DNA of 64,000 bases from contig JAGWNY010000005.1 in the NCBI GenBank assembly GCA_028872915.1, positions 21,922-85,921 of the forward strand, read 5' to 3'. The notes below the pieces were generated by a model. That model saw nothing but the letters and a program-made list of their open reading frames with translations, had not been told where the DNA came from and made no database searches. Position 1 is the first letter of the stretch; every line of letters starts with the position of its first letter. Positions 62,335 through 64,000 of this stretch are shown here, one piece after another. Position numbers and translations under genes: made by a program. Source of the stretch: Verrucomicrobiota bacterium. GTDB lineage: Bacteria; Verrucomicrobiota; Verrucomicrobiia; Limisphaerales; UBA11358.

Positions 62335-62496
62335 ATGAACATCGTTTTATTCGAGGAAAAGCGGGTCCGCCGCGCCTGGGATGAGGCCGGGCGGAGATGG
62401 TATTTTGCCATCGTTGACGTCATCGCCGTGCTGACCGGCAGCGCCCGCGCTTCAAAACTGCATGCCCATGCGACTAATGCTTCCGATATTGGCTGA
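62335..62496 (+). pseudogene. Truncated BRO-N/phage antirepressor-like gene fragment
   Basis: IVLFEEKRVRRAWDE..WYFAIVDVIAVLTGS is a BRO-N-like start; similarity is lost after about codon 38. Confidence 0.65.
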
Positions 62497-62743
62497 CCAA
62501 CTTTTCGTATTCCGCATGTGGACCAATCCAAAACCAATAGGCCGTGCCTCCGACCACGTGAGCCAGCGCGCGGTAATTACTGTCAATACGAGCGCTCCAA
62601 ACTTTGCCGATTTTCTTGAAATGAAGGGATGGATAGCCGTGATCCTGCCGCCACAAGTGATAGGCTTTGCGAACGCGCCCTTGAACGTCCCGTGGCAGCG
62701 AAGCGAACGCCTGGCGGAACCTAGGAGTTGTCGCAGAGTTCAT
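62474..62743 (-). CDS. RelE/ParE/HigB-superfamily toxin
   Basis: F..LP.DVQ...KAY.LW..D..YPSLHFKK, WSARI..NYRAL, WFWIGPHAEYEKL. Confidence 0.82.
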   Translation of the reverse strand: MNSATTPRFRQAFASLPRDVQGRVRKAYHLWRQDHGYPSLHFKKIGKVWSARIDSNYRALAHVVGGTAYWFWIGPHAEYEKLVSQYRKH

Positions 62744-62942
62744 CCGTCGGGCGGGTCCTTCTGGCGGCGATGTCTTGTTCGACCTCGTGCAGCAAGCCGT
62801 CGAGCGCGCCGGAAGCGGAATCGGCTTCGATTTGCCGATCCCATTGGCGATTGCGCTCTGCGTCGAACCATTGTTCCAATTCGCCAAACTCGCGAACGGA
62901 AAGCCTGGCAATGGCTTGCTCGATCTCGGCAACTGAACTCAT
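62721..62942 (-). CDS. Putative antitoxin (small acidic protein)
   Basis: MSSVAEIEQAIARLS...WDRQIEADSASGALD.L; overlaps the toxin start. Confidence 0.75.
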   Translation of the reverse strand: MSSVAEIEQAIARLSVREFGELEQWFDAERNRQWDRQIEADSASGALDGLLHEVEQDIAARRTRPTDELCDNS

Positions 62943-62978
62943 GCCGAAAATATACACCTGCACGGCATAATAACTCAA

Positions 62979-63114
62979 GCTTCAACGGGGCCGCGCCCAA
63001 ACGGGCGCGGAATGTATTTACCAATGAGGCAATTAAACGCATACGATCATGCTTCAACGGGGCCGCAGGTTCCTTTCGTCTCCCGAGTAATTAGACAAGA
63101 AGATTCGCGGAGTT
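62979..63114 (-). CRISPR. Type I-G(I-U)-like CRISPR mini-array: interrupted repeat, one 36-nt spacer, intact 36-nt repeat
   Basis: Intact repeat 62979-63014 (minus strand CATTCCGCGCCCGTTTGGGCGCGGCCCCGTTGAAGC, 8-bp hairpin); spacer 63015-63050; the second repeat is identical for 16 nt at 63051-63066 and its other end reappears at 63106-63114. Confidence 0.85.
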
Positions 63115-63141
63115 CGATTCGCCAATAGTTGTTCATAGCGC

Positions 63142-63169
63142 TTGACTGCTTGATGTTTAATGATAGTAT
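63142..63169 (+). promoter_or_regulatory. sigma70 promoter toward the NYN gene
   Basis: TTGACT-16 nt-TAGTAT with an extended -10 TG. Confidence 0.6.
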
Positions 63170-63188
63170 GAGTTTATTGGTTTGTCAA
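63160..63188 (-). promoter_or_regulatory. Near-consensus sigma70 promoter for the mini-array and TA operon; overlaps the spacer target
   Basis: TTGACA-17 nt-TATCAT on the minus strand. Confidence 0.75.
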
Positions 63189-63354
63189 CAGTGAGATCGG
63201 GGATAAAACCTGACGGCTTTTGCCGCCCATTTTGGCAAGGCATCAAGGCCCGAGGCAAGAAACTCGCGCCAGACGCCACAATTTTATTGAACGAATGAAG
63301 CGCCGCACCTATATTGACGGCACATCTCTCCGGTCCGTTTCGACGGCCGGACGC

Positions 63355-63390
63355 AGGGCAGCTTCTTCGGAAGCTGCCCTCGCATTTTTT
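63355..63390 (+). terminator. Terminator/attenuator-like hairpin upstream of the NYN gene
   Basis: AGGGCAGCTTC-TTCG-GAAGCTGCCCT is a perfect 11-bp stem, followed by cgcatttttt. Confidence 0.6.
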
Positions 63391-63415
63391 AGGGCCCTGC
63401 CTCATCGTAAAATCA

Positions 63416-64000
63416 ATGAAGACAATTCTCTACATTGACGGCTTCAACCTGTTTTACAGCGCACTCAAGGGCACACCCCTCCGCTGGCTGAATCCCGTCG
63501 CCTTGATTGGGCGGGCTTTCCCACGCAACCGAATTATCGGCACAAAGTATTTCACGGCCAAGGTCAGTGCCCTTCCGAACAATCCCGACCAGCCGATTCG
63601 CCAGATGATACTGTGGCGTGCTCTGCGGACGCTGCCCGATCTCGAGATCATCAAGGGCGATTTTCGCACCCGCAAGGTGATGGCACCGGTCGTTACGCCG
63701 CCGCCCGGTTTCATTGAAGTATTCAAGACCGAGGAGAAGGGTTCGGACGTGAACCTCGCCGCGCACTTGCTGCTGGACGGCTTCCGGGGCCGCTACGAGT
63801 GTGCCATCGTCGTTTCCGGCGACTCCGACCTCGTCACGCCGATCAAAATGGTGCGGGATGAACTCAAAAAACCGGTTGGCGTATTGAATCCACAGCGGCT
63901 TTCCGGTCCAAATTGCCGCCCCCCGCGAAAAAATGCCGGACTGCAACGGGCCGCCAGCTTCTATCAGAACGGCATCACCTGGGCGCAATTATTGGCCGCG
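63416..64000 (+). CDS. NYN domain (LabA/DUF88, PIN-like) ribonuclease, open at the right edge
   Basis: Manual translation MKTILYIDGFNLFY...EEKGSDVNLA...VSGDSDL; missing from the ORF track because no stop codon falls in the window. Confidence 0.88.
   Translation, partial: MKTILYIDGFNLFYSALKGTPLRWLNPVALIGRAFPRNRIIGTKYFTAKVSALPNNPDQPIRQMILWRALRTLPDLEIIKGDFRTRKVMAPVVTPPPGFIEVFKTEEKGSDVNLAAHLLLDGFRGRYECAIVVSGDSDLVTPIKMVRDELKKPVGVLNPQRLSGPNCRPPRKNAGLQRAASFYQNGITWAQLLAA

Follow-up and report, generated by a model that had tools for sequence, protein, structure and literature searches.

Guide-based regulation by CRISPR systems has been demonstrated experimentally for types I-B, I-E, I-F, I-C, and V-A (10.1101/2023.03.10.532045; 10.1101/2024.01.05.574328; 10.1101/2024.12.27.630466). 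In H. hispanica, the type I-B CreA RNA represses the divergent promoters PcreT and Pcas8 through one site, and creA-like elements have been found for types I-D, I-C, I-E, I-F, and I-U (10.1101/2023.03.10.532045). Related modules include CreTA, an RNA toxin and RNA antitoxin of type I-B, and CrePA, a type I-F module in which a KilAC protein toxin is under CreA control (10.1101/2024.01.05.574328). The CRISIS arrangement of type I-C employs a CRISPR RNA (crRNA)-like RNA (crlRNA) that targets the promoter of an embedded defence gene next to a TTC or TTA protospacer-adjacent motif (PAM), with mismatches concentrated at positions 6 and 12 and in the PAM-distal part (10.1101/2024.12.27.630466). Mini-arrays with partial matches to cas8 or cargo promoters have also been described, with toxin-antitoxin (TA) genes enriched between mini-arrays and cas genes, and are predicted to regulate cargo such as TA pairs in shuffling hotspots (10.1101/2023.03.03.530964). 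The element considered here is a mini-array on the minus strand (62979-63112) of a 64,000-nucleotide (nt) stretch of DNA, hereafter the window (contig C44:21922-85921 of genome G000), and it is very likely, on the sequence evidence set out below, a working crRNA-like regulator of the CreA/CreR type that belongs to the resident type I-G system. Type I-G, of which I-U is the old name, is the least studied type I subtype, and its regulatory crRNA-like RNAs are, as far as the literature was searched, known only from bioinformatic mention.

The anatomy of the mini-array resembles that of CreR and CreA, in which a degenerate psiR1-psiS-psiR2 unit lies beside cas genes, with psiR1 keeping mainly the handle and psiR2 the 3' hairpin (10.1101/2023.03.10.532045). 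On the minus strand, read downward from position 63188 and with the letters and coordinates of the mini-array re-read from the sequence, the order is a predicted promoter, a leader of ~40 nt, a degenerate first repeat (psiR1, 63112..63051), a 36-nt spacer-like guide segment (psiS, 63050..63015), a full 36-nt repeat (R2, 63014..62979), the predicted promoter of a TA pair, the antitoxin gene, and the toxin gene. Two repeat-derived sequences therefore flank a spacer-like segment outside a CRISPR array, as they do in CreA and CreR. R2, defined by comparison with array repeats and by folding, consists of a predicted hairpin followed by CCCC and GTTGAAGC; its match to the Rfam family CRISPR-DR16 is weak and below threshold (E 0.53). 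The 16-nt core of the repeat occurs in two copies in the window, against 0.13 expected, and the last 16 nt of psiR1 (63066..63051) are identical to the repeat end. In the predicted fold of psiR1, CCGCG (from 63110) is paired with a UGCGG that immediately precedes CCCC and the 8-nt GUUGAAGC, so that the base of the stem is kept around an enlarged loop. In this folding model psiR1 looks like a repeat with an enlarged loop, which goes beyond the simple truncation of the earlier description.

A complete type I-G cas operon is present on the same contig, beginning 2.6 kb past the end of the window. In the coordinates of the extended locus L013 (window position minus 62000), it comprises cas3g (4579-7347), cas8g2 (7344-8132), cas7g/csb1 (8137-9207), csb2 (9220-10827), cas4g-cas1g (10856-12988), and cas2 (12992-13282). 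A second contig of the genome, C55, terminates in an array of at least 34 repeats, namely 34 exact copies of the 16-nt core and a degenerate terminal repeat. The published biochemistry of type I-G includes a TTN PAM, a cut 4 nt after the repeat stem, an 8-nt handle, and the flipping out of every sixth base in a 5+1 pattern (10.1101/2022.08.08.503147), and the layout of the C55 repeat (stem, CCCC, then GTTGAAGC, the same end as in the mini-array) fits this processing rule. R2 is identical to the array repeat at 31 of 36 positions, and two of the five differences, 11 G>C and 18 C>G, form a compensatory pair within the stem. A sequence-only reading of the window, made with the letters and open reading frames (ORFs) alone, had assigned the mini-array to type I-G and proposed a search for I-G cas genes beyond position 64000 and for arrays with the same repeat; the resident operon and the shared repeat end of the C55 array support that assignment.

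The guide segment is matched by a partial protospacer close by, which is the predicted Cascade (CRISPR-associated complex for antiviral defence) binding site (63160..63180, plus strand). Positions 1-5, 7-11, and 13-17 of psiS equal plus-strand 63160-63176, so that all 15 pairing positions among the first 18 agree (15/15) and mismatches fall at 6, 12, and 18 only. Over positions 19-36, a manual count finds 3 of 18 matching, identity being gone after about position 21, and a PAM-like TTA stands immediately 5' of the protospacer (63157..63159, plus strand, by direct reading). The PAM, the seed, and the mismatches at 6, 12, and 18 fit the published I-G properties, and partial, PAM-proximal complementarity to a nearby PAM-flanked site, here at predicted promoters, is likewise a feature of CreA and CreR, the CreA of H. 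hispanica serving two divergent promoters from one target (10.1101/2023.03.10.532045). Searching the 3.19-Mb genome with the 15 specified bases, allowing at most one mismatch, returned exactly two sites, the spacer and the target, while a reversed-pattern control returned none; on both strands of the 13.4-kb locus no further site reached even 12/15. A promoter scan found four promoter-like sites in 1.1 kb, compared with 0.7 ± 0.8 in shuffled sequences, and the target coincides with the best of the region. These are the predicted mini-array promoter (TTGACA-17-TATCAT, 63188..63160, minus strand, 11/12), whose -10 box and spacer are covered by the target, and a predicted divergent promoter with a TG extended -10 (TTGACT-16-TAGTAT, 63142..63169, plus strand, 9/12), whose -10 box lies inside it. 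Downstream of the two lie the mini-array itself and, behind a terminator-like hairpin, an NYN-domain gene. The letters and coordinates of the match and of TTA given by the sequence-only reading are all exact, and its placement of the target over the -10 boxes of both promoters is borne out by the scan.

Related mini-arrays were sought at other I-G loci. A single Cas3g protein used as query against genome contigs found no relative, and a family profile search across the order was used instead, which detected cas3g in 75 of 401 genomes of the same order, including G000. The locus set comprised 62 loci (60 fetched, one from the same genus, G015, and L013 itself), of which 24 have detected arrays, nearly all with repeats ending in ...CCCCGTTGAAGC or a one-base variant. 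Repeat-end motifs outside arrays were located, and the next 18 nt were compared with sites within 400 nt, requiring at least 13 of the 15 pairing positions; matches inside true arrays (L035 plus strand, L069, and, in the control, L086) were dropped as repeat artefacts. Six loci were accepted: L013 and L072 (both 15/15, TTA), L035 (14/15, TTA), L068 (14/15, TTG), L034 (13/15, TTT), and L070 (13/15, TTT). A 13/15 match in L082, with CAT in the PAM position, was set aside as probably false. The reversed-motif control gave no match outside arrays among 133 candidates in the 62 loci. The metagenome contig L183 contributes a further psiS/target pair (13/15, TTC), and metagenome locus L171 repeats L072. 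All seven accepted pairs (the six order loci and L183) thus carry a TTN PAM. In the six order loci the distance from psiS to its upstream target is 55-110 nt; three of the targets are on the opposite strand, and the other three share the strand of psiS. By manual reading, the target sits at or beside the presumed promoter of the mini-array itself, with overlap or abutment noted for L035, L068, and L034. As judged from these sequences, equivalent putative mini-arrays with different spacers are present in other I-G loci of the order, each matching its own nearby TTN-flanked site.

The nearest homologue is in genome G306 (locus L072), whose psiS differs from that of G000 at eight of the first 18 positions. 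At all seven differing positions that pair, the G306 target carries the same change as its psiS, whereas at positions 6 and 12 both genomes have C in psiS and A in the target. Gene conversion between guide and target is disfavoured, because conversion would erase the mismatches at 6 and 12; that mismatches persist exactly where no pairing occurs points to selection on pairing of the Cascade type. Covariation of spacer and promoter that spares every sixth position had been set out in advance as a test of the guide, and the seven compensated changes pass it. The seven natural guide/target pairs, all with TTN and with mismatches concentrated at flipped-out or PAM-distal positions, form a ready collection for working out which seed and PAM rules govern I-G binding when no cleavage follows.

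Two further observations concern individual mini-arrays. Five examined mini-arrays (both of L013, and those of L072, L035, and L068) combine C in the guide with A in the target at position 6, and three do so at position 12, which may reflect either common descent or a preference at flipped-out positions. In L070 (genome G094) the psiR2 hairpin is directly followed by seven T, so that the second repeat serves at the same time as an intrinsic terminator; this mini-array is not followed by a cargo ORF.

The mechanism that best accommodates these observations, and which we regard as probable, is one in which the guide RNA parks the I-G complex on its own promoter region without cutting. The mini-array would be transcribed from the minus-strand promoter, and Csb2 would cut 4 nt after the stems of psiR1 and R2 to release an RNA composed of the 8-nt GUUGAAGC handle, the 36-nt psiS, and the R2 hairpin, which Cas8g2, Cas7g, and Csb2 would load. 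The complex would then bind the TTA-flanked 63160-63177 through the first three 5-nt segments of the guide; as complementarity ends after ~21 nt, the R-loop would remain incomplete and Cas3g would not be licensed to cut. While bound, the complex would occlude the -10 boxes of both back-to-back promoters, and the element would repress its own synthesis, a negative feedback that would report the level of free Cascade. Transcription on the plus strand toward the NYN gene, which resembles the candidate defence family HEC-09, would also be repressed. The TA operon would be expressed at a basal level from its own promoter and would gain read-through only when Cascade is short.

Several observations weigh against parts of this reading. 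psiR1 lacks a canonical hairpin, folding predicting only the longer alternative stem, and the fold of the whole 179-nt region is no better than that of shuffled sequences (z = -1.6). Among the eight sequencing runs, from two studies, that are listed as containing this DNA, none is recorded as RNA. The promoters were scored by the E. coli sigma-70 consensus, and the host is probably a Verrucomicrobiota represented by a metagenome-assembled genome. In G020, whose Cas3g is the closest relative (74% identity), no mini-array precedes cas3g. The NYN gene begins 256 nt from the target, behind the strong terminator-like hairpin, and an examination of the 61 other I-G loci found no copy of it, its link to the mini-array being confined to this genome. 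The TA promoter lies outside the target, ~180 nt from it in G000, and an intact TA pair stands beside a decayed mini-array in L067/L069, L116, L126, and L142, and in the metagenome loci L170, L188, and L218.

It is possible, with a clearly lower probability, that the guide works but controls nothing beyond itself, or in the past controlled the Cascade operon, as a CreR-type element on a mobile cassette, the plus-strand promoter being a relic of a donor cas promoter and the TA pair and NYN gene being passengers of a gene-shuffling hotspot. In G306 the csx17 (cas8g1) start codon comes immediately after the homologous target, while in G000 the NYN gene, a Myb-like gene, and an oppositely oriented kinase gene intervene between the cassette and cas3g, so that the plus-strand promoter cannot be the cas3g promoter. 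The TA proteins of G000 are 70-74% identical to those of G306, as against ~31% for the Cas3g N-termini, which suggests that the cassette moved between loci. R2 is moreover closer to the array repeat of G229 (L064), which has the same stem and the same GGAATG end, than to the array repeat of its own genome, a likeness that fits transfer of the cassette between I-G loci, and a second mini-array is found 265 nt upstream of cas3g. On the other side, the plus-strand promoter has kept good agreement with the consensus as well as an extended -10, and the 5' end of an NYN gene survives as a relic only 136 nt from the target, which suggests that NYN-type cargo has stood at this promoter for some time.

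The second mini-array (L013 4201-4313, minus strand; window coordinate 66201-66313, outside the window) consists of a near-complete psiR1, a psiS of 37 nt, and a psiR2 whose 3' end is degenerate. Its best target (L013 4578-4607, overlapping the cas3g start region) matches at 12/15 with TTC and is not claimed, another site in the locus scoring equally.

The TA pair is composed of a 73-aa antitoxin gene (62721..62942, minus strand) and an 89-aa toxin gene (62474..62743, minus strand) whose start overlaps the 3' end of the antitoxin gene. The predicted toxin belongs to the ParE/RelE superfamily according to Pfam, structure modelling, and fold matching. The Pfam family ParE_like (PF24732) matches the window toxin marginally below the cut-off (E 8.7e-5) and matches all 43 of the aligned toxin homologues; the AlphaFold2 model (predicted local distance difference test score, pLDDT, 94.5) has the RelE/ParE fold, its best matches in the PDB being the RelE, YoeB, YafQ, and HigB toxins (template modelling score, TM, 0.55-0.74). 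The antitoxin has no match in Pfam or NCBIfam, and sequence profiles of the toxin and the antitoxin found nothing meaningful in the PDB, no sequence-level relative, and also nothing in NCBIfam. Homologues of the antitoxin are paired with the toxin in other loci (30-74% identity), the closest pair being that of G306 (70% and 74% identity), and in most of the best 80 loci from a species collection, by an untallied reading, the antitoxin gene directly precedes the toxin gene. In fold and size of the toxin, and in having an adjacent, co-conserved small antitoxin gene upstream of and overlapping the toxin gene, the pair resembles RelE/ParE type II TA systems. It departs from the typical case in that some members of the family are physically joined to I-G repeat remnants; the predicted toxin may be either a ribosome-dependent RNase or a gyrase poison.

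The pair has a predicted promoter of its own (TTGAGT-18-TATATT, 62978..62949, minus strand), identified in the promoter scan and adjoining R2. The -10 box of this promoter stops 6 nt short of the antitoxin ATG, suggesting a leaderless TA mRNA. Among the 70-nt sequences preceding the antitoxin start in 68 loci, many show the arrangement TTGnnn, 16-18 nt, TAnnnT, and 5-7 nt to the start, with or without a CRISPR link, and the recurrence of this layout in non-CRISPR members of the family indicates that the TA pair brings its own promoter. The family comprises 554 confirmed stretches in the species collection, mostly in Verrucomicrobiota and cyanobacteria. Within the 62 I-G loci, toxin and antitoxin occur together in L013, L035, L067, L069, and L072, and the antitoxin alone in G015. 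Five of the best 80 species-collection matches lie within 5 kb of I-G cas genes, and in 9 of 80 metagenome matches a repeat-end motif occurs within ~60 nt upstream of the antitoxin gene. In I-G-linked TA loci there is little or no gap between the repeat end and the -35 box of the promoter just 5' of the antitoxin gene. Mini-array and TA pair thus appear, from their recurrence, to travel as a cassette, and the repeated fusion of this ParE/RelE TA family to I-G repeat remnants offers a testable case of TA recruitment to CRISPR-cas loci, whether as stabilisers or as Cascade-loss alarms. In the metagenome loci L226 and L190 the antitoxin start lies ~12 nt past the repeat end, and there the repeat would have to supply the -35 region of the TA promoter.

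These properties bear on the full model of the sequence-only reading, in which Cascade carrying the crlRNA is the sole brake on both the ParE/RelE toxin and the NYN RNase, and its loss leads to addiction or abortive infection. The model has in its favour that both divergent -10 boxes lie under the target, that the toxin has a RelE/ParE fold and the NYN protein matches HEC-09, that the mini-array/TA cassette recurs at I-G loci, and that analogous circuits exist in CrePA (type I-F) and CRISIS (type I-C). It nevertheless appears doubtful. The toxin has a protein antitoxin and a conserved promoter outside the target, and cells carrying intact TA pairs beside mini-array remnants survive without the guide, which argues that the guide is not the essential brake of the toxin; given the own promoter, the protein antitoxin, and this persistence, loss of Cascade need not release the toxin. 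Persistence of the pair fits either a locus-stabilising cassette or a pair on which read-through has no more than a modulating effect. The absence of conservation of the NYN gene, the hairpin before it, and the lack of a defence phenotype for HEC-09 count against the second arm of the model. Of the proposed control over two toxins, the position of the target over both predicted promoters is supported, and the exclusive hold on the TA pair and on the NYN gene is weakened.

A related reading, a shade less probable again, supposes that the mobile mini-array/TA cassette has spread among type I-G loci of Verrucomicrobiota and made an ordinary type II TA pair into a Cascade sensor, with one footprint in this genome gating both the TA pair and the HEC-09-like NYN gene as a two-armed I-G anti-anti-CRISPR switch. 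If true, read-through would override the autoregulated, leaderless TA promoter, and anti-CRISPR attack or loss of cas genes would result in growth arrest. That read-through shifts the toxin-to-antitoxin ratio was also considered and is given a low probability, since the toxin gene begins within the antitoxin gene and, in four loci, lacks an evident ribosome-binding site of its own.

That the element is a decayed, non-functional array remnant, with the likeness of spacer and target due to chance or to an old self-targeting spacer, is very improbable. The degeneracy of psiR1 would agree with decay, as would the fact that degenerate repeat remnants are common beside this TA family; set against this are the uniqueness of the match in the genome, the mismatches at exactly 6, 12, and 18, the TTN in seven of seven accepted pairs, the seven of seven compensated changes relative to G306, and the empty control. 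Least probable of all is that the two similar sequences are protein operators, for instance for TA-complex autoregulation, rather than guide and target: type II toxin-antitoxin complexes do usually bind repeats in their own promoter, but here one copy always lies exactly between two CRISPR repeat-like sequences and follows the 8-nt handle without a gap, it is always the target copy alone that has a TTN before it, the mismatches have a period of six, and neither copy overlaps the TA pair's own promoter.

The CreA/CreR-type regulator favoured here is accordingly best described as a fresh example of known CRISPR self-regulation, which opens no new mechanism. The sequence-only reading knew of no earlier description of the arrangement, but for the class of mechanism such descriptions exist: control of divergent promoters by CreA, a mention of I-U elements, mini-arrays with TA cargo, and crlRNA-supervised defence genes are all in print. 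Differences from each of these remain. The experiments of the CreR/CreA work concern types I-B, I-E, and V-A only, with the I-U cases placed in a supplementary figure (10.1101/2023.03.10.532045); here, the divergent partner is not a cas operon, and a protein TA pair follows the mini-array. CreTA and CrePA share with the mechanism predicted for this locus a Cascade-guided, crRNA-like RNA acting at a promoter in a cas locus, for which addiction to cas genes or defence against anti-CRISPRs has been proposed, but there the guide RNA is the only antitoxin (10.1101/2024.01.05.574328), whereas the RelE/ParE-type toxin here has a protein antitoxin and its own, untargeted promoter. CrePA is in addition defined by a KilAC toxin without protein antitoxin at a type I-F locus, in place of which this type I-G locus has a ParE-like toxin with one. 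Neither a creT-like RNA toxin nor a KilAC gene was seen at the locus, no dedicated search for tRNA-sequestering creT features having been made; between the plus-strand promoter and the hairpin lie ~215 nt that contain only the NYN relic and give nothing significant in Rfam. The mini-array survey deals mainly with type I-D, reports its enrichment for types I-B, I-E, and I-F1, and does not use the terms 'I-G' or 'I-U' in its main text (10.1101/2023.03.03.530964). CRISIS belongs to type I-C and has a single repeat unit after the cargo (10.1101/2024.12.27.630466), unlike the two-repeat I-G mini-array that precedes a TA pair and diverges from a candidate defence gene. The accessible part of a 2025 review names only CreTA, CreR, and CrePA and mentions neither I-G nor ParE (PMC12737573). 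No published I-G example with a RelE/ParE-type TA cassette was found in the literature, although the supplements of two of these reports may list one (10.1101/2023.03.10.532045, Fig. S7; 10.1101/2023.03.03.530964).

On the plus-strand side, ~120 nt without a recognised feature separate the divergent promoter from the relic of an NYN 5' end (ATGAAG...TATATTGACGGC, 63296..63330), which duplicates the start of the real NYN gene through a direct repeat, D5 (63309-63321 with 63430-63442). The terminator-like hairpin (63355..63390), with an 11-bp stem, a UUCG loop, and a T-run, lies between the promoter and the NYN start. The NYN gene (63416..64000, plus strand, running 60 nt past the window) encodes 214 aa, is single-copy in the genome, and matches the Pfam NYN family (E 6e-7) and, over nearly the full length of the profile (positions 4-202 of 203), the PADLOC family HEC-09 (PDLC04163, E 7e-32), making it a HEC-09-like candidate defence gene. 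HEC-09 is reported to have an NYN/MARF1-like RNase fold, gave no protection against the phages tested, and is not known to be toxic (10.1101/2024.01.29.577857). Regulation of the NYN gene by Cascade is plausible by analogy with CRISIS of type I-C, and conservation lends it no support. A resemblance of the distal half of psiS (63016-63031) to 63398-63413, just 5' of the NYN start (13/16), was judged to be due to chance, as it has no seed or PAM and equal inverted pairs occur elsewhere.

Beyond the NYN gene, L013 2159-2995 (plus strand) encodes a 278-aa protein with five tandem Myb/SANT-like repeats, which may be a DNA-binding accessory or regulator, and tblastn places relatives of it inside or beside the I-G loci L028 and L044. 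It is followed by a 167-aa kinase-like gene in the opposite orientation (L013 3412-3915, minus strand), which matches the PADLOC profile ST_Kinase (E 1e-50), described as CRISPR-linked, and also occurs downstream of the mini-arrays in L068, L034, and G015. The start codon of a conserved 82-aa ORF (L013 3914-4162, plus strand) overlaps the kinase gene. A 395-aa ORF ending at the cas3g start was rejected as spurious, the kinase ORF on the opposite strand being the better conserved of the two (59% against 40% identity to G015). In G020, sequence like L013 3257-3403 stands directly at the cas3g start. The arrangement suggests that cas3g has received at its 5' end a 1.2-kb insertion, a cassette made up of the kinase gene, the 82-aa ORF, and the second mini-array.

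At the other end of the locus, an 89-aa ORF fragment (62227-62496, plus strand) converges with the toxin gene and has no Pfam match. Window positions 62350-62445 show 74% DNA identity to a stretch beside the TA pair in an Akkermansia-labelled contig (L142).

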